The notes under the pieces were generated by a model. The model had not been told where the DNA came from. It saw only the letters and a program-made list of their open reading frames with translations, and did not search any database. Shown one piece after another: positions 1 through 59,940 of a DNA stretch of 64,000 bases. The position numbers were made by a program, and so were the translations under genes. This stretch comes from Christensenella sp. UBA7571 (lineage in GTDB: Bacteria; Bacillota; Clostridia; Christensenellales; CAG-917), in assembly GCA_002476605.1 (NCBI GenBank), contig DLLD01000001.1, forward strand, positions 17,449 to 81,448. Direction: 5' to 3'. The first letter of the stretch is position 1. The number at the start of each line of letters is the position of its first letter.

Positions 1-468
1 CTTATCACGCAAGTTGCGGGAAGAGCGGGAAGAGCGGAAAAGGAAGGGCGTGTCATTTTGCAGACTTACGCTCCCAAACATTACGTTTTCCGCTTCGGAA
101 AAAACTACGATTATATCGGTTTTTGGAAAAAGGAAATCAACACTCGTATGGTTACCAAGTTTCCGCCGTTTACGAAGGTTGTGCGCGTGCTTTGCACTGC
201 CGTAAACGAGCAAGACGTCGTGGACACTACGAGGAATATATACAAGGCAATTCAACAAGTCGAAAAAGACAACGGCAAATTCGTGTATCTGGGCGCAAGC
301 AAGTCTCCCGTGACCAAAATGAACGGGCTTTGCAGATACCAGATACTTATGCGTATCGTTCCCGACGAGTTTGAAAGAATAATTGAAAAAATCTATGCGA
401 TTACCGACGAAAATCGCTCAAAAAAATGCAACGTTTTCGTCGAGATAAATCCGCAAAGTATGATTTGA
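1..468 (+). CDS. priA: primosomal protein N' (PriA), C-terminal fragment; the 5' end lies outside the window
   Basis: Frame 1 is open from nt 1 (...GRVILQTYAPKHYVF...). The C-terminal ...CNVFVEINPQSMI tail and the position directly upstream of def-fmt fit PriA. Confidence 0.8.
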   Translation, partial: LITQVAGRAGRAEKEGRVILQTYAPKHYVFRFGKNYDYIGFWKKEINTRMVTKFPPFTKVVRVLCTAVNEQDVVDTTRNIYKAIQQVEKDNGKFVYLGASKSPVTKMNGLCRYQILMRIVPDEFERIIEKIYAITDENRSKKCNVFVEINPQSMI

Positions 469-10679: not shown

Positions 10680-10707
10680 TTGACATTTTTATAGGATAGT
10701 GTATAAT
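10680..10707 (+). promoter_or_regulatory. sigma-A type promoter driving the large ncRNA
   Basis: TTGACA (10680-10685), 16-nt spacer, TATAAT (10702-10707). The predicted TSS is about 10714, just before the terminal helix of the RNA. Confidence 0.6.
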
Positions 10708-10715
10708 ATAATTAA

Positions 10716-11292
10716 ATGGTGGTGCAGTATTCTAGTCAGATTCCACCGACTCGGAGGCGGGGGTAAAATATCGCCGAAGGGCATATCGATGAAGTTTCTG
10801 GTGACGGCTTCTTTTGCCCAAATTGGGGCTGTTGCTGGGAGTTAAGGTTTTTGGGCGGCTTGCAACGGCATGCAAACCCCGTACCAATTTCCGTGGAGAC
10901 CCAACTCGGTGGACAGCGTAAAAACTGCCTACTGACTGGGGTGAAACCTGATATGCGGTGTGAAAATGCTGTGTACAGTGTAGCCTGCTTTGAGTGACGT
11001 ATAGGGATTAGGGAACCACGCCTTTTCGTATGGCCAATACGCGACGGTGATTGCCCAATGAAATGTACGCTGCAAAAAAAGATAAGGGCGGGCGGAATCT
11101 GTCAAGGAAATCTTCTAGACTGTTCTTTGAGGCAATCTGGGGATTATAGTGTGCTCTAAGTGGCGATTCGGTTTCTTCTTTAAGACGATGCGACGAGTAA
11201 TAGGAAACTTCTCGGACGGTGACGACGAGTTTCGACGCAGGGAAATCCTACCGAACCTATGGCGCAAGGTTTACCCAAATTGTCACCACCAT
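10716..11292 (+). ncRNA. ole: large structured ncRNA, most likely OLE (ornate, large, extremophilic) RNA
   Basis: No ORF of 60 aa or more occurs in any frame between 10664 and 11307. A 9-bp perfect terminal helix joins atggtggtg (10716-10724) and caccaccat (11284-11292). Long-range complements are 10737-10744/11094-11101 and 10743-10749/10906-10912. It has its own consensus promoter and no terminator before the downstream 4-TM protein. The neighbourhood (4-TM protein, tlyA, nadK, argR, recN) matches the published OLE/oapA context. Confidence 0.65.
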
Positions 11293-11307
11293 CCAAAGCA
11301 ATAAAAC

Positions 11308-16587: not shown

Positions 16588-16908
16588 GCGAGTTAGCCGG
16601 ACGGTCGCGTGAAATAATCGAGGAAAGTCCGAGCATCATAGGGCACGGGTGCCGGGTAACTCCCGGTGAAGGCGACTTCAAGGACAGTGCAACAGAAAAA
16701 TACCGCCGATTTTTCGGTAAGGATGGAAAGGCGAGGTAAGAGCTCACCCGCAATTTGGCAACAATGCGCGATGTAAACCCCACTCGATGCAAGATAGGGA
16801 ACGTGAAATGTGGCCCGCAAGTTCCCGACATCGCTTGAGGCGTGCAGAAATGTACGTCCTAGATAGATGACCGTCAAACACAGAACTCGGCTTACAGACT
16901 AATCTCGC
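16588..16908 (+). ncRNA. rnpB: RNase P RNA (bacterial, type A-like)
   Basis: Universal GAGGAAAGUCCGAGC at 16620-16634, followed by AUAGGGCACGGGUGCCGGGUAAC...ACAGAAAAAUACCGCC. The 3' end has ACAGAACUCGGCUUACAG. P1 pairs gcgag (16588-) with ctcgc (-16908). Confidence 0.9.
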
Positions 16909-17041
16909 TATGAAAGAAGAAGGCGCAAGAGTCTTCTTTTTTCTTTTGTAAAACGATATTCTAACAACTTAAAATTGCATTTTTTAATGAATTTTGCGCG
17001 GTTTTCTTACTAAAAAATGAAATATAGGCAATAAATAACGT

Positions 17042-29603: not shown

Positions 29604-30956
29604 ATGTTTTACAAAATCAACACTTACGGCTGTCAAATGAACGTTCACGAAAGCGAGAAAATCGCGGGAATACTCGAAGATATGGGGTATACCGATTGTC
29701 CCGAGAACGGTAATCCCGACGTTATCGTATTCAATACTTGTTGTATTCGTGACACGGCAGAGAGAAGAGCGCTCGGCAATATCGGCGTAACGAAAGCCGA
29801 GAAGAAGCGCAATCCCAATCTCATTTTGGCGGTCGTTGGTTGTATGCCACAACAAGACGGCGTTGCTGAAAGTCTAAAAGAAAGATATCCGTACGTCGAT
29901 ATCGTGCTCGGCACTCGCAATATTGCCGAACTCAAAGACGAAATCGAAAAGGTGGTTGCTTCTCGCGCTCGCGTTAAGAAGAGAAGCGACAAAAAGTATC
30001 GTTGTTTTGACACCGAGCAACCCGCAAACTACCTTGAAATAGACGAAAAAACGCCCCAAACGAGGACGAGTTATCCCAACGCGTGGATAAACATTATCTA
30101 CGGTTGCAACAACTTTTGCACTTATTGCATAGTGCCGTACGTGCGCGGAAGAGAAGTTTCGCGCGATATGAACAGCGTTCTCGACGAAGTGAAAAAATGC
30201 GTTGACGAAGGCTACAAAGAGATTACTTTGCTCGGTCAAAACGTCAATTCCTACGGCAACGACGTAGACGATCCCAACGTGAATTTTGCCAATTTGTTGA
30301 GAGAAATCGACAAAATCGAGGGCAAATTCCGCGTGCGTTTTATGACTTCGCACCCAAAGGATCTCAACGACGATATTATCGACGCTATGGCTAATTCGAG
30401 CAAGATTTGCAACAATTTGCATCTTCCCATTCAAGCGGGCTCTGACAAAGTGCTTGCCAATATGAACAGACGCTACGACAGCGCAAAATATCTCCAAACG
30501 ATAGAGAAGCTTCGTAAAGCGATGCCCGATATCGGCATTACCACCGATATTATGGTGGGCTTCCCGACGGAGACGGAAGAGGACTTCCAAAAGACGCTCG
30601 AAATCGTGGAAAAAGTGCGCTATTCCAACGCGTTTACGTTTATTTACTCACCGAGAAAAGGCACACCCGCCGCAAAGATGGAGCAAATTCCGTACGCTGT
30701 GAAGCAAGAGCGCATTTCAAGGCTTATCAAGCTTCAAAACAAGATAACCAAAGAGATATCCGACACGTACGTGGGCGGAGTTTTCGAGGTTCTATGCGAG
30801 GATATCGCGCCTAAATACGAAGGTATGGTGTGCGGAAGAACGGAAAGCGGAAGGCTCGTCACTTTCGAGGGAGATAGTGAGGATATCGGCAAGTTCTTCA
30901 ACGTCAAAATCTCGCAATCGAAGTCCGCTTCGCTTTTCGGACACAAGGAGGGTTAA
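29604..30956 (+). CDS. miaB: tRNA-2-methylthio-N6-dimethylallyladenosine synthase
   Basis: YGCQMN, GCNNFCTYCIVPYVRG and a TRAM C-terminus. Confidence 0.93.
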   Translation: MFYKINTYGCQMNVHESEKIAGILEDMGYTDCPENGNPDVIVFNTCCIRDTAERRALGNIGVTKAEKKRNPNLILAVVGCMPQQDGVAESLKERYPYVDIVLGTRNIAELKDEIEKVVASRARVKKRSDKKYRCFDTEQPANYLEIDEKTPQTRTSYPNAWINIIYGCNNFCTYCIVPYVRGREVSRDMNSVLDEVKKCVDEGYKEITLLGQNVNSYGNDVDDPNVNFANLLREIDKIEGKFRVRFMTSHPKDLNDDIIDAMANSSKICNNLHLPIQAGSDKVLANMNRRYDSAKYLQTIEKLRKAMPDIGITTDIMVGFPTETEEDFQKTLEIVEKVRYSNAFTFIYSPRKGTPAAKMEQIPYAVKQERISRLIKLQNKITKEISDTYVGGVFEVLCEDIAPKYEGMVCGRTESGRLVTFEGDSEDIGKFFNVKISQSKSASLFGHKEG

Positions 30957-30959
30957 GGT

Positions 30960-33587
30960 ATGGAAATCGACCGCAACAAACTCACTCCTATGATGAAAAA
31001 GTATTTTCTCATCAAGGACAATTATCCCGATTGTTTGCTGTTTTTCAGACTGGGTGACTTTTACGAGATGTTTTTCGACGACGCCGTAACCGCTTCTCGC
31101 GTTCTCGACCTTACGCTTACGGGCAGAGACTGCGGTATGAGCGAGCGCGCGCCTATGTGCGGTGTGCCGTATCACGCAGTTGACAACTATATCCGCAAAC
31201 TCATAGAAAACGGCTATCGCGTGGCTATTTGCGAGCAATTGAGCGATCCCGCAAACACCGCAAAAGGCGAACTCGTCGAGCGAGACGTCGTGCGCGTGGT
31301 ATCCAGCGGTACGGTTATGGAAGAGGATATCCTCGACGAGAGGTCGTCAAACTATCTTTGCTCCGTTTTCACCAACGCAAACGCGTTCGGCATCGCTTGG
31401 ACGGATATCTCGACGGGTGAGTTCAACGTATACGAGTACGAGGGCGAAAATTATCTCGACAAACTTTCCAACCTCTTGGGAAGCATTTCCCCGAGCGAAA
31501 TCATTTGCAACGAAGATTTTCTTGCCAAATACCCCAAAATCGCGTTCTTCAAAGCAAGCGAAAAGAGGGCGCATTGCTATCACGAATTCGCTTACGGTTT
31601 GAGCGTCGCGACGAAGAAAATTTTGACGACTTTCAACGTACAATCGCTTTCCGTATTCGAGATTGACAATCATCCGTATGCGGTGAGCGCGACGGGCGGA
31701 CTTTTGGAATACTTGGCGCAAACGCAAAAACGCTCGCTTGCGCAACTCAACAAAATCGTATTCTTGCACGACAAATCTTTTATGATGCTTGACAATTCCA
31801 CTCGCAGAAATTTGGAATTGACACAGCGTGCAAGAGACGGCAAACGTCAAGGCTCGCTTTTGAGCGTGCTCGACAAGACGTACACGGCAATGGGCGCGCG
31901 CACTTTGAAGAGATGGATTGAGCAACCTCTTCAAGACGGCAACGCCATAAACGCCCGACTCGACGCGGTGGAAGATCTTATTTCGTCAAAAGCCGTTCGC
32001 GAAAGATTGGGCGCATCGCTCGAACAAGCGCGCGACCTCGAACGCCTCAACGGAAGACTTGCCTACGGCAATTCCACGCCCAAAGATTTGCTCTCAATAA
32101 GCGACACTTTGGAAGTCTTGCCACAAATCAAGCTCACGCTTAAAGATACGTCCGCAAGTATGCTCAAAAAAATAAATAGCGATCTCAGTCCGCTCAAATC
32201 AGTATGCGCGACGCTTCAAAGCGCACTCGACAGAGACGGTGTAAACAGCTATAAAAACGGCGGATATATCGCAAAAGGTTACGACGAGACGCTGGATCAA
32301 ATGCGCGACATCAAGACTTCCGCGCGCGATTGGCTCTCCAATTTGGAAGCAAGAGAGAGGGAAGAGACGGGTATCCGCACGCTCAAAGTGGGATATAACA
32401 AGGTCTTCGGATACTATATCGAAGTGTCAAAATCTTTCACGGATAAAGTGCCTTATCGTTACGAACGCAAGCAAACACTCGTAAACGGTGAGAGATATAT
32501 CACGGCGGAACTCAAAGAGTTGGAAGAGAAGATTCTTTCCGCGGAAGCGAACGTGCAAATGCTCGAAGACAAGATTTTTACGGAACTCAAAACTTTGTGC
32601 ATAGAGAATTTTGCGTCCCTTCAAGCCGACGCACAAGCACTCAGCACGCTCGATTGCCTCTTGTCTTTTGCCAACGTATCGGTTGCGAACAGATACGTGA
32701 AACCGATCATCAACAAGAAAGTGAAGAGCATCGATATTCAAGACGGCAGACACCCCGTCGTCGAAACGCTTCTCGACAAGGGCGCGTACGTGCCCAACGA
32801 CACGCTTCTCGACGACGATGAGAACAGAACGATGATCATCACCGGTCCGAATATGGCGGGCAAGAGCACGTATATGCGCCAAGTTGCGATAATTACGCTT
32901 ATGGCGCACATCGGGTGCTTCGTTCCCGCAAAATCCGCGGAAATCTCGCTCACCGACCGCATTTTCACAAGAATAGGAGCAAGCGACGATTTGAGCGGTG
33001 GTCAAAGTACGTTTATGGTGGAAATGATCGAAGTTGCCACCATTCTCAACTACGCAACGTCGTCAAGCCTTCTCGTTCTGGACGAAATCGGCAGAGGAAC
33101 GTCCACCTTCGACGGACTTTCCATTGCGTGGTCGGTGCTCGAATACATAACCAAAAACGTCAAAGCAAAGACGCTTTTTGCAACGCACTTCCACGAACTT
33201 ACCGAGCTTGAAGACCTCGAAGGCGTCAAGAATTATAGAGTGCTCGTCTCGCAAGTAAACGACACGATAGTATTCTTGCACAAAATCGTAAGAGGCGGTG
33301 CATCGCAAAGCTTCGGTATAGAAGTCGCGTCGCTTGCGGGCGTATCGAAACCCGTCATAGAACACGCAAAAAACATTATGCGTTCGCTCGAAGAGGACTC
33401 CAAAAACCGCGACACCAACGAAATGTTGCTCTCGTCCGCAAAGAAAAACGTGACTGCGCAAGTCAGTTTCTTCGACAGCGGTGAAAGCAAAATCGAAAAG
33501 CAAATTCGTGATACGGACGTGAACAATCTCACTCCGCTACAAGCACTCACCATTTTGAGCGACCTCAAAAAACAACTTGAAGAATAA
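30960..33587 (+). CDS. mutS: DNA mismatch repair protein MutS
   Basis: TPMMKKYF, GDFYEMFF and ITGPNMAGKSTYMRQ. Confidence 0.96.
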   Translation: MEIDRNKLTPMMKKYFLIKDNYPDCLLFFRLGDFYEMFFDDAVTASRVLDLTLTGRDCGMSERAPMCGVPYHAVDNYIRKLIENGYRVAICEQLSDPANTAKGELVERDVVRVVSSGTVMEEDILDERSSNYLCSVFTNANAFGIAWTDISTGEFNVYEYEGENYLDKLSNLLGSISPSEIICNEDFLAKYPKIAFFKASEKRAHCYHEFAYGLSVATKKILTTFNVQSLSVFEIDNHPYAVSATGGLLEYLAQTQKRSLAQLNKIVFLHDKSFMMLDNSTRRNLELTQRARDGKRQGSLLSVLDKTYTAMGARTLKRWIEQPLQDGNAINARLDAVEDLISSKAVRERLGASLEQARDLERLNGRLAYGNSTPKDLLSISDTLEVLPQIKLTLKDTSASMLKKINSDLSPLKSVCATLQSALDRDGVNSYKNGGYIAKGYDETLDQMRDIKTSARDWLSNLEAREREETGIRTLKVGYNKVFGYYIEVSKSFTDKVPYRYERKQTLVNGERYITAELKELEEKILSAEANVQMLEDKIFTELKTLCIENFASLQADAQALSTLDCLLSFANVSVANRYVKPIINKKVKSIDIQDGRHPVVETLLDKGAYVPNDTLLDDDENRTMIITGPNMAGKSTYMRQVAIITLMAHIGCFVPAKSAEISLTDRIFTRIGASDDLSGGQSTFMVEMIEVATILNYATSSSLLVLDEIGRGTSTFDGLSIAWSVLEYITKNVKAKTLFATHFHELTELEDLEGVKNYRVLVSQVNDTIVFLHKIVRGGASQSFGIEVASLAGVSKPVIEHAKNIMRSLEEDSKNRDTNEMLLSSAKKNVTAQVSFFDSGESKIEKQIRDTDVNNLTPLQALTILSDLKKQLEE

Positions 33588-33617
33588 ACCTTGCAATCTT
33601 TGATTGCGGAGAAGAAT

Positions 33618-35564
33618 ATGGGCAAAATTAATATTCTCGATTCAAACGTATTCAATATGATATCGGCAGGCGAAGTGGTCGAAAGGCCGTCGTCCGTCGT
33701 AAAGGAACTCGTTGAAAACTCCATTGACGCGGGCGCAACGCGCGTCGACGTTTACGTCGAAGAGGGCGGACTTGACAAAATTCAAGTCAGCGACAACGGC
33801 GTAGGCATCGAAAAAGAGGACTTGCGCAGTGCGTTTTTACCGCACGCAACGAGCAAACTTTGCAAAATCACCGACCTTGACTGTCTCTCGACGCTCGGTT
33901 TCAGAGGTGAAGCTTTGGCAAGCATATCGTCCGTTAGCAACGTAACATTGATCACGGCAAGCAAAGCGCAAAAAACGTCGTCTCAAATTTCGTTGAGTGG
34001 CGGAACGGTGACTTTCGAAGGTGAAAGCAATAGGGCGGAAGGCACGCTTATAAGCGTTGAAAACTTGTTTTTCAATACGCCCGCGCGCCTCAAATTCCTC
34101 AAAAAAGCGTCAAGCGAGTTGCATTATATCCAAGACACGATAAAAGCGTTGATACTTGCCAATCCGCATATTTCTATCACGCTATCAAACGAAGAGGGCG
34201 TGATATTGTCCAACGACGGAGGCAGTTTGCACGACGCCATTTACTCGGTGTACGGTGCAAAAGTCGCTGACAATTTGCTTCCAATCGTCGACAACGAGAG
34301 AGGAAATATCCGCGTGAGCGGTTTCACGTCAAAGGTTGATTACACCAAGCCAAACCGCACTTATCAGTCCATTATCGTCAACGGAAGAGCGGTGCAAGAC
34401 GCCACGATACAAACCGCGGTTGAGCGCGCGTATTCGGAATATCTTATGAAGCGCACGTATCCTATGTTTATCGTAGACGTATTGATGCCGTTCGAGGACG
34501 TGGACGTCAACGTTCACCCGTCCAAAACGGAAGTGCGTTTTAGAGATAAACACGCAGTATTCAGTGCGGTTTATCACGCAATCGAAGATACGATTGCACA
34601 AAATATGAGCAACGTTGCCTTTGGCTTCGATATCGAGCAAAACGGCAGTGAATTGAGCCAAAACAACCGAATTTTGCCTCAAAATACGCCTATTTCGACC
34701 GATTTTGAAGAAAAGCCGAGCCAAGAATACGTGCAAACGCACATCGATACGAGCAAGCTTTTCAGCGGTAAAACTCAACCCAAAAACTACGTCGGCATAG
34801 ATTTGTACGACACGAAACCGATTGCAAAATCCACGCTTGCCGACGGCGGTATCAACTATTACGATAACAATTTTACGAATAGTTATAAAACCAAAAATTC
34901 AATCGCTTGCGATACGCAAAGCGCAGATAAGTATTCTCAAAAAGTCGAAAATATAGAATATAGTGCCGATAATAACGACGATACGGCAATATTTGACGGT
35001 AAAATAGTAGGGCAAATTTTCAATACGTACATTATTTGCGAACGTGGCGATTTGGTTTATATTATCGACCAACACGCAGCGCACGAGCGCATTTTGTACG
35101 ACAATATCCTAAGAAAATTCAACGTCGAATACGCACAACCGCTTTTAATACCGTACAAACTCTCGTTGACGGGCGAAGAGGAAGAATATCTCGACAAAAT
35201 CGTTCCCAACCTTATTAAACTCGGGTTTGACATCGAGCAAAACGGCACGACGTATTTGATTAAAGCCGTTCCGGAGCCCGTGTCCAAAATCAATTTCGGC
35301 AAATTCTTCTCGGATTTGTTTGCAAATATGCTCAACGAGAACGAACTTACTCTCGAAAACTTGCTCAAAGACAAGCTTTGCCAACAAGCGTGCAAAGCGG
35401 CAATAAAAGGCGGTGAATCGCTCTCACACGCTCAAATTGAGCGAGTTATCAAGAATTACGTGGACGAAAACGGCAATTTGCCCACCAAATGTCCGCACGG
35501 TCGTCCCGCAGTCGTCGCTTTCAGCGCGCGCGATATCGAAAAGACGTTCAAGCGCATCGTATAG
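33618..35564 (+). CDS. mutL: DNA mismatch repair protein MutL
   Basis: ISAGEVVERPSSVVKELVENSIDAG and DNGVGI. The C-terminal endonuclease region contains DQHAAHERILY. ATG 33618 has RBS ggagaag. Confidence 0.94.
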   Translation: MGKINILDSNVFNMISAGEVVERPSSVVKELVENSIDAGATRVDVYVEEGGLDKIQVSDNGVGIEKEDLRSAFLPHATSKLCKITDLDCLSTLGFRGEALASISSVSNVTLITASKAQKTSSQISLSGGTVTFEGESNRAEGTLISVENLFFNTPARLKFLKKASSELHYIQDTIKALILANPHISITLSNEEGVILSNDGGSLHDAIYSVYGAKVADNLLPIVDNERGNIRVSGFTSKVDYTKPNRTYQSIIVNGRAVQDATIQTAVERAYSEYLMKRTYPMFIVDVLMPFEDVDVNVHPSKTEVRFRDKHAVFSAVYHAIEDTIAQNMSNVAFGFDIEQNGSELSQNNRILPQNTPISTDFEEKPSQEYVQTHIDTSKLFSGKTQPKNYVGIDLYDTKPIAKSTLADGGINYYDNNFTNSYKTKNSIACDTQSADKYSQKVENIEYSADNNDDTAIFDGKIVGQIFNTYIICERGDLVYIIDQHAAHERILYDNILRKFNVEYAQPLLIPYKLSLTGEEEEYLDKIVPNLIKLGFDIEQNGTTYLIKAVPEPVSKINFGKFFSDLFANMLNENELTLENLLKDKLCQQACKAAIKGGESLSHAQIERVIKNYVDENGNLPTKCPHGRPAVVAFSARDIEKTFKRIV

Positions 35565-35572
35565 TTATATAT

Positions 35573-36535
35573 ATGGATAATAATATAAATAAAAATACCA
35601 TAATATATCCGCCCGTGTATATCGCAGGTCCGACCGCGTCGGGTAAAAGCGCGCTTGCCGTAAAACTTGCGCGCAAAATCGACAGCGTGATTATTTCTGC
35701 CGACAGTATGCAAATTTATCGCGGGCTCGATATCGGCACGGCAAAGGAAAGCGAGAGTATTCGCAAGGAAATTCCGCACAAACTTATCGACGTCGTCGAC
35801 GCAAACGAGGAATTTTCCGTTGCCGAGTTTGCTCAAATGGCAAAAACGGAAATCGAGAACGCACAAAACTGCGGGAAATTGCCAATCGTCGTCGGTGGCA
35901 CGGGACTGTATTTTGAATCGTTGCTATATCCGATGAGTTTTGCAAACACAATCAAAAACGTCGAATTGCGCAATCGTTTGCAAGCGGAACTTGACGACGC
36001 GGGCGCACAAGCAATGCACGAAAAATTGCGCGCATTCGACGAACAAACGGCGCAAAGATTGCACGTCAACGATACTAAACGCGTTATTCGCGCGCTTGAA
36101 ATAATCATCTCAACGGGCAAAACGCTTGCTCAAAACAGCGACGAGCGCACGAAGCCCGACGTAATTATGGTTGCACTCGACACCGATCGCACCAAGCTTT
36201 ACGAACGGATAAACGAGCGCGTCGATCAAATGTTCGACCAAGGGCTCGTAAACGAGGTTTTGAGTGTCGGTGATTTTTCCTATCAATCTATGCAAGCAAT
36301 CGGTTATAAGGAATTTGCGGACTGCAATTACGTCAAAACCGACCGCGGATACGAAATCGATCCCGTCGAACTTGCTGAGATCAAGGACAAAATCAAACAA
36401 CACACCCGCAATTACGCAAAACGCCAACTCACTTGGTTTAGAAAATACGACTTCGTCAAATGGTTTGACGTAAACGATCAAGACGGCGCAATTGCGTATA
36501 TCGAAGAAAAAATCAAAGAAAAAACCACCGTTTAA
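35573..36535 (+). CDS. miaA: tRNA dimethylallyltransferase
   Basis: IAGPTASGKSALA P-loop and DSMQIYRGLDIGTAK. ATG 35573 preferred. Confidence 0.93.
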   Translation: MDNNINKNTIIYPPVYIAGPTASGKSALAVKLARKIDSVIISADSMQIYRGLDIGTAKESESIRKEIPHKLIDVVDANEEFSVAEFAQMAKTEIENAQNCGKLPIVVGGTGLYFESLLYPMSFANTIKNVELRNRLQAELDDAGAQAMHEKLRAFDEQTAQRLHVNDTKRVIRALEIIISTGKTLAQNSDERTKPDVIMVALDTDRTKLYERINERVDQMFDQGLVNEVLSVGDFSYQSMQAIGYKEFADCNYVKTDRGYEIDPVELAEIKDKIKQHTRNYAKRQLTWFRKYDFVKWFDVNDQDGAIAYIEEKIKEKTTV

Positions 36536-36629
36536 TGCGTTTTCACACGACGAATGAACGGTCAAAATCAACTGAAATACTAATAAAAAAACAAAAAACA
36601 TAACGAAAAATCAACGGAATTTATAAACT

Positions 36630-37877
36630 ATGGACAAAAATTCGGCAAAACAATTGATGATACAGACCGAGGCGGAACTCAAAGATCAGTTCGCGCGCCT
36701 TGACGATATCGCGCTTTACAATCAAAAGAAAGTTCTTGACGCGTACAAAAATCAAGCAATTCAAGCGCGCCATATGTTCGGCACGACCGGTTACGGCTAC
36801 GACGATATCGGCCGTGACACGCTTTGCAGGCTTTACGCCGACGTTTTCCACACCGAAAGTGCCATAGTTTCACCCAATATCGTATCAGGAACGCACGCTT
36901 TGACGCTTATGCTTTTCGGAGTTTTGCGCCCGGGAGACAAACTTTTGGCAGTTTCGGGTATGCCGTACGACACCTTGACAGACGTAATTTTGGCGGATAA
37001 CAAAGGATCTTTGAAGGATTTCGGCGTATCTTTTGACAAAATCGACCTCAAAACCAACCCCGATTTGACGCCCGAATTTGACTTTGACGCCATCGAAAAC
37101 GCGTTAAAATCTCAATTCGTTAAAGCCGTTTTCGTCGCAAGAAGTCGCGGATACAGCTTACGCCAAGCAATCAGCGTCGAAAAAGTCGGGCAACTTATCG
37201 AGTTCGTCAAAAAAATCAGTCCCAAAACGCTCGTTTTGGTCGATAATTGCTACGGCGAATTCGTCGAAAAAATCGAGCCTACGGACGTCGGCGCAGACCT
37301 TATCGCGGGATCGCTCATCAAAAATATCGGTGGCGGAATTGCACCCACAGGCGGATATATTGCGGGAAAAAGCGCGCTTGTCGAGCAAGTATCGTATCGT
37401 TTGACCGCGCCATCGCTCGGTATGGAAGAAGGTTCGTACGTTTACGGTTATTTGCCGTATTATCAAGGTTTGTTTTTAGCACCATCTGCGGTCAAAAACG
37501 CGTTAAAAGGTTCGCTTTTGTTTGCAAAAGCTTACACAAAACTCGGTTTCGAGACGCTTCCGTGCGACGATATGAAACCTTACGATATCGTAACAAGCAT
37601 CAAGCTCGGTTCTCCAGAAAAACTTATCGATTTTTGCGGTGCGATTCAAGAGATTTCTCCGATTGACAGCAACGTAAAACCGATGCCTTGGGATATGCCG
37701 GGATATCAAGATCAAGTTATTATGGCTGCCGGCGCGTTCGTGCAAGGATCTTCAATCGAATTAAGCGCGGATTCTCCGATAAAAGAACCGTATATCGTCT
37801 ACGTTCAAGGCGGTTTGACTTACGAACACGCATATCTTGCCGTTCAACATACGCTCGAAACACTCAATTTCGACTGA
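36630..37877 (+). CDS. PLP-dependent aluminium-resistance / methionine gamma-lyase family protein (YnbB-like)
   Basis: 415 aa. Family-typical N-terminus (...FGTTGYGYDDIGRDTL...) and conserved position downstream of miaA in Firmicutes. Confidence 0.75.
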   Translation: MDKNSAKQLMIQTEAELKDQFARLDDIALYNQKKVLDAYKNQAIQARHMFGTTGYGYDDIGRDTLCRLYADVFHTESAIVSPNIVSGTHALTLMLFGVLRPGDKLLAVSGMPYDTLTDVILADNKGSLKDFGVSFDKIDLKTNPDLTPEFDFDAIENALKSQFVKAVFVARSRGYSLRQAISVEKVGQLIEFVKKISPKTLVLVDNCYGEFVEKIEPTDVGADLIAGSLIKNIGGGIAPTGGYIAGKSALVEQVSYRLTAPSLGMEEGSYVYGYLPYYQGLFLAPSAVKNALKGSLLFAKAYTKLGFETLPCDDMKPYDIVTSIKLGSPEKLIDFCGAIQEISPIDSNVKPMPWDMPGYQDQVIMAAGAFVQGSSIELSADSPIKEPYIVYVQGGLTYEHAYLAVQHTLETLNFD

Positions 37878-37883
37878 ATTTTT

Positions 37884-38290
37884 GCTAAAAAAACCGTCGA
37901 AAAACCACTTAAAAACCGCAACTTTTACCCTAATTTTTAACGTAAAATTTGCTTAATAATCAGCTATATTTTTGGCAAAATCTGCGGATTATTAGACGAT
38001 TATGCGGTAAAATCTACGGTTAAAATAAAGCGAAATTAAGCGTAAAATCACAGTAATACTAAATGGTATATCGACGGTAAACCTAGCGGTAAACGTCGTA
38101 GGAAAATCCATAGCAAAAATAACGATAAAAGCAGTGTTTATCTAATCAAAATCGTATTATAACGCGTGATATAAAACGATTTTTAGCAGTGAAAACGTCG
38201 GTAAAAACACGGTATTTTGACATAATAATCGGCAAAAAAACACCAGAATTTTGACAAAAACCAACGGATAATCAATCAAATTTTTTCCGA
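37884..38290. repeat. ORF-free tract with degenerate 12-bp periodic motif (G/C-rich triplet + A4-5 tract)
   Basis: Consecutive 12-mers such as gcggtaaaatct / acggttaaaata / aagcgaaattaa / gcgtaaaatcac ... cggtaaacctag / cggtaaacgtcg / taggaaaatcca / tagcaaaaataa / cgataaaagcag. The same phasing is seen from gctaaaaaaacc / gtcgaaaaacca / cttaaaaaccgc onward. Confidence 0.6.
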
Positions 38291-56173: not shown

Positions 56174-56445
56174 GTCGTAACTTCTCTTAATGCAACTTTC
56201 CCCCTTCCTCACGGTGTTTCCCCTATTCCGTTCCCCCCTCTGCACTTCGTTTGAGGGAACCCACGGAACTGCTCCGCAGGGGGCAACACTCGGCACGCGC
56301 ATAGATAGGGACATTTCCCTCATTATGCCACTGCGCTTTGTGCGCCAGCTACGCAACAACACGGCGCAGTCGCTTGTACTAACCGTCAAGCTTGGCGCTC
56401 GATGCGATCGGCGCCTTGCGCCTCCAACTCCGAATAAGTTACGGC
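56174..56445. ncRNA. unassigned GC-rich structured element (~270 nt), strand undetermined
   Basis: Closing helix cgtaactt (56176-56183) / aagttacg (56436-56443). Internal helices lie at 56299-56328, 56330-56336/56364-56370 and 56372-56376/56387-56391. GGCGC/GCGCC segments form mutually exclusive pairings (56394-98, 56410-15, 56418-22). No credible ORF. Confidence 0.45.
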
Positions 56446-56447
56446 AA

Positions 56448-56576
56448 CTTAAACTTCACTAAACGGATGAAGAGCAAGGAAACACCCACCCGATACAAAA
56501 CCCAACGTACAAGTCGTACGTGATTTTGTAGCGGATGGGTGATGACACAGCTATTCGCCGTTTAGTGAAGTTTAAG
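56448..56576. repeat. long-hairpin element, copy 1 (129 nt), beginning at the pyrH stop codon
   Basis: Perfect 19-bp outer stem 56448-56466/56558-56576. Middle stem of 18 positions (16 base pairs, 2 mismatches) 56483-56500/56524-56541. Tip acgtac/gtacgt. Shares conserved loop blocks with copy 2. Confidence 0.75.
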
Positions 56577-59337: not shown

Positions 59338-59460
59338 ATAAAATTCGGGTGTTTTTGAGGAAATTTTTCAAATTTTTACGATTATTATTGAATTTTGAGA
59401 AAAACGCCTTGAAAAATGAATAATGGTAGTTGCATTTTTCCGCTTTCGGAAAAAAGTTTA

Positions 59461-59589
59461 TAAAGACCGCGATATTTAGATGAAGAGCGCGAAAAAGCCC
59501 CTTGGACAGCAACCCTAACGTACTAATGCGTACGTGAGTTGATGAACAAGGGGCTTTGACAATGCTATTCGCTAAATAGTGCGGTCTTA
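59461..59589. repeat. long-hairpin element, copy 2, beginning at the stop codon of the DUF1292 gene
   Basis: Outer stem 59463-59479/59572-59588 (15 WC pairs, 1 GU, 1 mismatch). Middle stem aaagcccctt/aaggggcttt (59494-59503/59548-59557). Tip acgtac/gtacgt. Conserved blocks atgaagagc and gacaNNgctattcgc are shared with copy 1. Confidence 0.75.
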
Positions 59590-59940
59590 CTTGCAGTTGT
59601 GGTCGCAACAGGAGCAGTGCTCGTCATCACAGCAACCGCCTTCCATCTTTTCAACCTCTGCCATAAACTCGTCGAAAACGCGTTGGAGCAAATCTTCGTC
59701 CTCGATTGCGATAAAGACGTCGTTGCCTTCTTCGTTCTCACCGATTTCGTAAATAAGCACTTCGTCCTCTTCGATGTCGTCGAGTTTTTGGACGGGTTTC
59801 ATAACGATAAACCATCTGTTGTCAACGTCGAGAGTTGCGAGATGATAAAATTCTTCGTCTTTGTCCGTTTCTTCGTTGTAAAGAGTGATGATATCGTCGT
59901 CTTCTTCCATATTGTTTTGGTCTTCAAAAAAATCTGCCAT
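59587..59940 (-). CDS. DUF1292 (YrzB-like) acidic protein with Cys/His-rich C-terminal tail
   Basis: The acidic pattern ...ITLYNEETDKDEEFYHLATLDVDNRWFIVMKP... is typical of DUF1292. Position after ruvX. The tail is GGCCDDEHCSCCDHNCK. Confidence 0.8.
   Translation of the reverse strand: MADFFEDQNNMEEDDDIITLYNEETDKDEEFYHLATLDVDNRWFIVMKPVQKLDDIEEDEVLIYEIGENEEGNDVFIAIEDEDLLQRVFDEFMAEVEKMEGGCCDDEHCSCCDHNCK

Follow-up and report, generated by a model that had tools for sequence, protein, structure and literature searches.

Stop-codon-anchored long hairpins: an apparently undescribed family of palindromic repeats in uncultured gut Clostridia

The stretch of 64,000 nucleotides from Christensenella sp. 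UBA7571 analysed here (contig DLLD01000001.1, positions 17,449 to 81,448 of the forward strand; hereafter the window) carries two copies of a hairpin element of 129 nt, copy 1 at 56448-56576 and copy 2 at 59461-59589; at their 3' ends, both overlap a stop codon of a minus-strand gene. The element is a variant of the bacterial palindromic intergenic repeats with unusual rules, and it belongs to a family that is uncatalogued and apparently undescribed, with no match in Rfam or in the literature searched. The best reading is that the family is selfish or semi-domesticated and resides in uncultured gut Clostridia, with outliers in other phyla. With confidence slightly better than even, we regard the element as a non-autonomous, structure-recognised palindromic repeat of ~125-135 bp, which proliferates at the DNA level and doubles as a bidirectional terminator. 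Neither the mirrored arm of 18 bp nor the placement at in-frame stop codons, exact to the nucleotide, is accounted for by a known system.

Sequence and folding of copy 1 agree with the anatomy given in a preliminary description of this DNA. On the strand bearing GATGAAGAGC, which is taken as the + strand, copy 1 is antisense to pyrH and matches the covariance model (CM) of the family with 121 bits (E ~2e-27). Its outer stem comprises 19 bp and is perfect, formed by the gene-distal arm (56448-56466) and the gene-proximal arm (56558-56576), the latter including tta (56572-56574), which is the pyrH stop codon in reverse complement. Further inwards follow a bulged A at 56467 and the basal helix UGAA-G-AGC / GCU-A-UUCG, with one G.A mismatch, one U.G pair and an internal loop above it. 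The conserved basal block ATGAAGAGC (56467-56475) pairs with GCTATTCG at 56550-56557 and supplies the bulged A together with one partner each of the invariant U.G pair (the U) and the G.A mismatch (the G), while a conserved 3' block, ATGACACAGCTATTCG (56542-56557), makes up the 3' side of the internal loop as well as of the basal helix. The middle stem has 18 positions and 16 pairs (56483-56500 / 56524-56541), and the tip hairpin ACGTAC-AAGTC-GTACGT (56505-56521), the helix of which shows covariation, is flanked by an asymmetric loop, CCCA / GA. Copy 1 belongs to the subfamily with the loop AAGGAA...GACACAGC. Copy 2 has the same architecture, as had been proposed, with a loop of the GCGCGAAA...GACAATGC subfamily; it is antisense to a DUF1292 gene and is matched by the CM at 59458-59593 with 134.8 bits. 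The blocks said to be common to both copies, namely GATGAAGAGC, AACGTAC..GTACGTGA and TGACANNGCTATTCGC, are indeed shared, and the outer and middle stems of the two are unrelated in sequence yet paired.

Both hairpins are far more stable than expected, with a minimum free energy (MFE) of -62.3 kcal/mol for copy 1 compared with -24.5 +/- 3.6 for shuffles (z = -10.4) and of -61.6 kcal/mol for copy 2 (z = -10.3). For both copies, folding the complementary strand or applying DNA parameters gives equally good results (z -9 to -12.8). A CM scan of the window returned copies 1 and 2 and no third. The overlap with stop codons is an addition to the preliminary description: the TAA of pyrH (56572-56574, minus strand) lies within the outer stem of copy 1, and the TAA of the DUF1292 gene (59587-59589, minus strand) forms the outermost pairs of the outer stem of copy 2. 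As the 3' arm thus ends with the reverse complement of a stop codon, the hairpin on the mRNA strand starts at the stop codon.

Hundreds of further copies exist, hence the idea of a selected structure, which the preliminary description had made depend on there being more than these two, does not fall on that count. When the pattern ATGAAGAGC-N55-85-GACANNGCTATTCG was scanned against one genome per species, at least 118 loci (L numbers below) were found, from ~40 assemblies among the matches listed. Full hairpins make up 107 of the 121 pattern matches, and a few matches in unrelated taxa (L018, L041, L053, L112) have no outer stem and look like chance. The family model was built on 73 non-redundant copies; the CM detects ~140 distinct copies in 696 kb of fetched DNA, and nhmmer gives 202 matches in 820 kb. 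Most carriers are metagenome-assembled genomes (MAGs) of uncultured Clostridia or "Christensenella sp." (Christensenellales-like) from human, rabbit, ruminant and chicken gut, the others being Saccharibacteria/Patescibacteria (L073, L084, L107), a Chthoniobacterales MAG (L086) and a deltaproteobacterial MAG (L035).

It is the structure rather than the sequence of the stems that is conserved, as had been claimed from the two window copies. The RNAalifold consensus contains 40 pairs, 32 of which show compensatory change, and in 129 CM-aligned copies 96.1% of the cells are paired, compared with 70.1% in shuffles and 35-44% in slid registers; double changes occur in 37 of the 40 pairs, and the covariation score is 0.65 for the real structure and 0.17 for the control. 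Other parts are nearly fixed: the foot of the core is a G-C pair followed by U.G in 129/129 copies, and the bulged A, a purine-purine mismatch four pairs up, a GACA block and a GTAC-type tip are near-invariant, as part of a core with two purine-rich internal loops. A variant subfamily with the basal helix UGCU-A-UGC / GCA-G-AGCG keeps the wobble and the bulge, with A.G replacing G.A. The internal loop comes in two correlated versions, GCGCGAAA with GACAAWGC and GCAAGGAA with GACACAGC, and the window contains one copy of each of these old subfamilies, both of which occur in many genomes; the two copies are therefore not one motif that drifted with compensation, as the preliminary description had it.

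In the variable stems, G.U (~49) and A.C (~44) are about equally frequent at consensus pairs, hence the stems carry no sign of selection as RNA on one strand, which fits palindromes that were born perfect and then decayed by neutral mutation. Selection on the structure is thus upheld as far as recognition or propagation demands it, while a role as a cis-regulatory RNA is not shown. On the + strand, the conserved non-Watson-Crick features, namely U.G, G.A, tandem G.A and an apical loop resembling UAA/GAN, look like common structured motifs, and this strand is the more stable one by 4.9 kcal/mol on average and in 76% of copies (p ~1e-11). The strand of action could not be derived from wobble counts or folding energy, as the consensus pairs are symmetric and MFE-based wobble counts contradict one another.

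The second defining property of the family is its anchoring at stop codons. The preliminary description had proposed to record the copies relative to stop codons, and this record shows them anchored: a minus-strand gene ends at the 3' arm of ~85% of the + oriented copies, and counted per gene the element at the stop is antisense in 104 and sense in 15 cases (~87% antisense), several of the 15 being the convergent neighbour of an antisense-anchored copy. The distance from core to stop is 13-17 nt in 58/80 copies (mode 15), which puts the stop codon at +16..18 of the core, and 1-12 nt in 19/80, where the open reading frame (ORF) extends a few codons into the arm; it is larger in one copy, L014, which sits within an ordinary terminator. 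By contrast, the intrinsic terminators of the usual kind found at these loci begin 0 to >60 nt past the stop and are thus scattered, so that anchoring is a property of the element, and the notion that it is a general property of terminators in these genomes was rejected. Copies in Patescibacteria obey the same rule, after khpA and nusG. The C-termini of the preceding proteins are native, as EF-P ends in ...GEYMSRV* and the ends of PyrH and the DUF1292 protein are of equal length in relatives with filled and empty sites. In a Pfam scan of 71 anchored genes, housekeeping functions of glycolysis and translation dominate, including GAPDH (six times), EF-P (four times, or seven with miscalled genes), class II aminoacyl-tRNA synthetase (aaRS), PGK, iPGM, PEPCK, Obg, DnaN, UPRTase and UMP kinase, and mobile-element genes are absent from the 71. 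Sites such as gap and efp are filled in many species, by different subfamilies.

The outer stem measures 17-19 bp in 64/107 copies, with a short tail of longer stems, and its arms have a family-wide consensus, (T)AAAACYGCGnTATTTRG, which implies that the arms normally move with the element. Pairing extends through the stop codon (98, 84 and 81% at its three positions) and is at background within 3-4 nt beyond it. Among near-identical copies in one genome, the end of the distal arm matches the local stop, be it TAA or TAG. Thirteen copies have the stop as close as 1-5 nt to the core. For most of them, coding sequence specific to the site accounts for the greater part of the gene-side arm (as in efp and the genes of L098, L109 and other loci), in a few (among them L022 and L090) the arm is typical of the element and the ORF simply reads into it, and both kinds keep a stem of ~18 bp. 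At the efp site, L001 has TCA AGA GTC TGA and L011 has TCT CGC GTA TAA, synonymous codons that are each mirrored perfectly on the distal side. As coding-sequence arms are mirrored at a fixed length, the distal arm appears to be re-created from the gene-side arm. The ends resemble a terminator: A occupies positions -17..-14 in 66-94% of copies, and T occupies +14..+17 in 66-93%. Judged by sequence, the architecture of an intrinsic terminator, a stable stem directly followed by a T-tract and mirrored by an A-tract, is thus present on both strands. Insertion into the loops of existing terminators was considered and rejected, since in one genome every occurrence of the arm bears a core and empty hairpins are absent, the arm consensus extends over the family, and only L014 looks nested. 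Likewise, a target duplication of TA, TAA or TTAA is inconsistent among near-identical copies.

The elements occur singly or as 2-4 head-to-tail units in one orientation, with a period of ~125-135 nt and spacers of 0-25 nt. Adjacent units can belong to different subfamilies (L015, L064, L117), hence arrays were built by separate events rather than by tandem duplication. Preservation is usually best in the unit next to the gene, and distal units are decayed, cut at the tip, internally deleted or devoid of the gene-side arm (the L011 relics, L075, L105, L062), showing that new copies accumulate beside the gene while older ones decay. In the window, the gene order, all on the minus strand, is ruvX, DUF1292, copy 2, the rpsB promoter, rpsB, tsf, pyrH, copy 1, frr, uppS and cdsA, so that copy 2 lies upstream of the rpsB promoter. 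Comparison with relatives whose RpsB is at least 90% identical revealed that the pyrH-frr site holds another subfamily with other arms in L131/L132 and is empty in L134/L135, where a plain terminator lies 21 nt past the stop. At the DUF1292-rpsB site, only the window has an element, the relatives carrying ordinary terminators, and strains with 100% identical Frr carry yet another element. Near-identical cores are also found at unrelated sites within one genome.

These rules could be accounted for by propagation at the DNA level through an enzyme that recognises the folded single strand, following the logic of repetitive extragenic palindromes (REPs) with RAYT, of the ends of IS200/IS605 insertion sequences (ISs) or of attC with IntI. 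Such an enzyme might act as a ruler that measures a fixed ~18 nt from the foot of the core. Alternatively, template switching from arm to arm might re-synthesise one arm from the other. Either process would leave the arms perfectly paired even where one of them is coding sequence. In addition, each copy would serve the preceding housekeeping gene as an intrinsic terminator that works in both directions and as a stabiliser of the 3' end, as expected from a closed stem followed by a T-tract on both strands, and this would account for the element being tolerated or retained at such places.

A mobilising enzyme was sought by tblastn with Y1 TnpA/RAYT sequences against 0.85 Mb of loci. The sole real match is a RayT-like Y1_Tnp+HTH protein in L103 (ORF 893-1663), directly beside a hairpin array. 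This gene is bracketed by inverted repeats of ~320 bp ("X"; L103 100-2250), which are distinct from the hairpin element and of which solo copies lie beside arrays in six more loci from related genomes (L021, L031, L089, L102, L113, L114). Where homologues of the L103 protein were examined, in three further contexts of fixed synteny, the 2.5-3 kb around them contain no hairpin element, and one RayT match in 0.85 Mb is about what chance predicts. A RAYT is not supported as the mobiliser, given this single adjacency and the absence of elements near its homologues, and apart from the L103 Y1 gene no flanking transposase was seen beside the elements. With regard to replication, in 79/92 classifiable copies the + strand of the element coincides with whichever strand of the 8-kb locus is C-rich, which suggests, by analogy, a replication-strand bias of the kind known for single-strand transposition, and in one complete chromosome the orientation of the elements flips once, between 0.50 and 0.82 Mb. 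If replication is what decides, the strand exposed on the lagging-strand template would be the mRNA-sense one, with its bulged T and mismatches.

Several observations weigh against a repeat that proliferates as DNA. No mobilising enzyme was found in the 0.85 Mb of loci, and a nucleotide-precise tie to in-frame stop codons fits no known mechanism of DNA transposition. Filled and empty alleles differ by replacement rather than by simple insertion, and neither a target-site duplication nor a clean insertion boundary could be defined. The orientations of replication and transcription are confounded, and the few informative cases are split, with 6-7 following the skew and 9 following the gene. The purine-rich loop motifs and the better folding of the gene-antisense strand look RNA-like, and the shared gap and efp sites and the prevalence of housekeeping genes could equally mean selection by the host for a function.

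The last of these points leads to the rival that survives best, for which we see a limited but real chance: a host-selected, translation-coupled, cis-acting module at the 3' end of the mRNA, the copies of which spread by duplication and gene conversion. Here, the hairpin would be co-transcribed with the gene before it, its base resting on the stop codon, and the terminating ribosome, which covers ~15 nt past the stop, would melt or block the outer stem. Translation would thereby be coupled to intrinsic termination, to the stability of the 3' end or its processing by RNase III, or to a stalling of the ribosome such as has been reported in E. coli for REPs no more than 15 nt from stop codons. 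Such a module would explain why the stop lies inside or at the edge of the stem in 77/78 scorable cases and never stays behind upstream of it, unlike in ordinary terminators, why the intact copy of an array is usually the gene-proximal one, and why the same housekeeping genes are equipped across many genomes (gap x6, efp x4-7, pgk, aaRS, pyrH), and it agrees with the A/T-tract architecture of a terminator. However, the mRNA-sense strand has the poorer motifs (C.A and Y.Y mismatches, a bulged U and pyrimidine loops) and is the less stable one by the 4.9 kcal/mol given above, and in the variable stems G.U is not in excess over A.C on either strand. Moreover, close relatives manage with a plain terminator, which for its part needs no core conserved across phyla, and decayed arrays of mixed subfamilies are unexpected of a purely regulatory element.

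More doubtful is the proposal that the element represents a mode of propagation new to bacterial mobile DNA, with the core placed after the stop and an arm folded back, or else a ribosome-sensing terminator spread selfishly. In the fold-back version, the distal arm would be a snap-back copy of a fixed 17-19 nt of gene-side sequence, that is, an inverted duplication of the target site, and where the element lands would depend on translation termination or on the point at which transcription and translation uncouple. In the other version, a selfish element would have spread a ribosome-sensing terminator behind a large part of the housekeeping genes of a bacterial order.

A further rival concerns the GATGAAGAGC strand itself and draws on a second repeat, "Y", ~250 nt of conserved non-coding sequence that lies between copy 1 and the frr promoter (56184-56440, + strand). 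Y recurs in >25 other loci (among them L007, L011, L025, L046, L058, L066, L072, L078, L079, L090, L098 and L129), 50-400 nt off the gene-distal side of the hairpin and mostly on the same strand; its alignment folds into 46 pairs, 10 of them with compensatory change, and it has no Rfam match. Y may be a companion of the hairpin element, to judge from these positions. It is unlikely, if conceivable, that the GATGAAGAGC strand is the functional one, either as an independent structured small RNA or as a single-stranded DNA copied from the 3' end of the mRNA in the manner of multicopy single-stranded DNA (msDNA), and bound by protein; as a small RNA, Y and the hairpin might form one transcript of ~380 nt ending at the T-tract. 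In favour of such a product, all conserved non-Watson-Crick features are RNA-like on this strand, which is the more stable one in 76% of copies, Y is mostly found immediately upstream in the same direction, with some covariation of its own, and the core is kept in Patescibacteria, Chthoniobacterales and a deltaproteobacterium. Against this, the upstream region has no conserved promoter and the left flanks are unrelated or consist of other elements, Y is absent at copy 2 and inverted at some loci, and no reverse transcriptase or other partner gene lies nearby. Decayed array members and presence/absence polymorphism speak against a needed gene product as well, and the anchoring at stop codons would be left unexplained.

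It is highly improbable that the element is an attC-like single-strand site for a tyrosine recombinase, integron-like or CALIN-like: with its 125-135 nt it falls within the range of the structure-specific attC hairpins (57-141 nt) and shares with them a conserved structure over variable sequence, extrahelical and mismatched bases, putatively a strand-specific active form, a fixed orientation directly after an ORF with overlap of the stop, arrays that gain units at one end and arms that are alike within a genome, but its arms end in (T)AAAAC / GTTTT(A) rather than in R''/R' boxes of the type RYYYAAC / GTTRRRY, its copies are scattered genome-wide instead of in a single array, its neighbours are dispersed, syntenic core genes (rpsB-tsf-pyrH-frr) rather than cassettes, and no integrase was seen in ~0.85 Mb of flanks. 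Integrons are essentially unknown in Firmicutes.

By analogy, the proliferating palindromic repeat favoured here is closest to three systems with a similar logic, REP/REPIN, attC and IS200/IS605 ends, although it appears to lack the defining features of each. REP, BIME and REPIN sequences are abundant extragenic palindromes downstream of genes, often clustered, with REPIN hairpins of ~100 nt; a single-copy enzyme is presumed to move them in the form of folded single strands, their variants are genome-specific, and they serve as terminators, mRNA stabilisers and ribosome-stalling sites near stops (in part after PMC5581495). The hairpin element is likewise extragenic, present in high copy number and located near the 3' ends of genes. 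What is conserved in REPINs, however, is the stem, made of two inverted REPs of 20-25 nt that carry GTAG at the 5' side, and what varies is the loop, whereas in the element the stems vary and the loops, bulge and wobble are kept; it has no GTAG and is a single hairpin of 129 nt rather than a short REP unit of 20-40 nt. REPs are loosely placed near stops, in contrast to the exact and nearly universal anchoring of the element, and a RAYT gene is flanked by its repeat, while no RAYT flanked by the hairpins was seen in the loci searched. The ends of IS200/IS605 and of their MITE derivatives, the palindrome-associated transposable elements (PATEs), are similar in that they are imperfect hairpins with a bulged base, recognised on one strand, without target-site duplication and with an orientation bias relative to the replication strand; they are cut at a set distance from the foot of the hairpin, which is 19 nt at the left end of IS608. 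Nevertheless, IS200/IS605 has two short subterminal hairpins where the element has one of 129 nt, there is no linked tnpA/tnpB (L103 aside), and the target has no constant motif beyond the stop and the A-tract.

The ERIC (IRU) and Correia (CREE) repeats and the Rickettsia palindromic elements (RPEs) are likewise multi-copy imperfect palindromes, of 100-160 bp, that are co-transcribed and affect termination or processing. All of them are unrelated to the element in sequence, Correia repeats have 26-bp terminal inverted repeats and a TA duplication, ERIC copies are near-identical, and none is reported to be locked to stops or to have an asymmetric conserved core over covarying stems. RPEs can sit in-frame within ORFs, and this may also hold for one copy in the Chthoniobacterales MAG (L086 1447-1578), which lies in sense orientation inside the ribD ORF, where the deaminase domain has an insert of ~45 aa; by this analogy, it may be an in-frame insertion of the RPE type. 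With rho-independent bidirectional terminators the element shares the A-tract, a GC-containing stem, the T-tract and the position after a gene, yet ordinary terminators are short and unique, while the element has a stem-loop of ~110 nt with a conserved core and is repeated, arrayed and stop-anchored. An ordinary miniature inverted-repeat transposable element (MITE), which the preliminary description had already argued against, is contradicted by arm termini that differ by copy and follow the local stop, by the absence of direct repeats around near-identical copies, and by the failure to find a related autonomous IS. The accompanying claim that the element is not freshly copied holds as regards these missing hallmarks of MITEs, but in its arrays, its filled and empty sites and its near-identical cores the element behaves as a proliferating repeat.

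Known non-coding RNAs and replicons were considered as well. In an Rfam 15 scan of the window at gathering thresholds, OLE RNA and RNase P RNA pass and the hairpin element does not, and in 16 further element loci only tRNAs were found; in E-value mode the element gave chance miRNA-like matches alone (E ~1). As the Y repeat is empty too, a known RNA family was rejected. A phage, plasmid or viral origin was rejected after two pattern scans of viral sequences and a blastn comparison with plasmids and phages had come back empty, and a search of the literature for the sequence blocks and for such repeats in Christensenellaceae or Clostridia returned nothing relevant. A small ORF from the invariant ATG (MKS...) was discarded, given that it has no Shine-Dalgarno sequence and that the length and sequence of the peptide shift with the covariation of the stems. 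The consensus cores of the hammerhead (CUGANGA..GAAA) and hairpin (loop A/B) ribozymes and of the K-turn (3-nt bulge plus tandem G.A), as well as the C/D box, do not suit the arrangement of the loops, and the ribozymes and the K-turn have no Rfam match even at E<=10.

If the favoured interpretation is true, the family is a major unannotated component of the intergenic DNA of widespread uncultured gut Clostridia, with ~1 copy per 15-30 kb in carriers, and many core transcripts probably owe their 3' ends to the element. Taken together, its rules, namely stop anchoring, the 18-bp ruler, arms that mirror coding sequence, the wobble and bulge, and array accretion, constitute a sharp signature for finding the enzyme, and they possibly point to a new mode of site choice or palindrome maintenance. 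A practical consequence concerns assembly. Short-read (Logan) contigs L119-L128 with frr or pyrH break off inside or beside the hairpin, and in an ENA contig from another sample (L129, ~1680) a copy identical to copy 2 passes, within its distal arm, into a different downstream gene, so that the breakpoint of this rearrangement lies in the arm. The elements are hence assembly break points and possibly rearrangement points, and as the hairpins break short-read assemblies, the contiguity of MAGs is affected.

Some further features concern the window and the carrier genomes at large. At ~30000-38000 of the window, the GC skew turns from positive to negative and the orientation of the genes from the + to the - strand, as is typical where replichores converge, and the window may accordingly span the replication terminus, as far as base composition and gene order can tell. 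The OLE RNA (403 bits) and the class A RNase P RNA found in the window (10703-11305 and 16589-16911) place the host among the OLE-carrying anaerobic Firmicutes. In the rabbit-gut MAG CANQCC, other, unrelated intergenic repeats lie beside hairpin arrays, for example GGCACCTTGCAAAGCAATGGTGCC hairpins and a CCCCATAGAAAGGAGCAAAGCGAGTTTTATGGGG block (L062 380-560, L014 70-150, L092 1780-1870), hence some carriers are repeat-rich overall.

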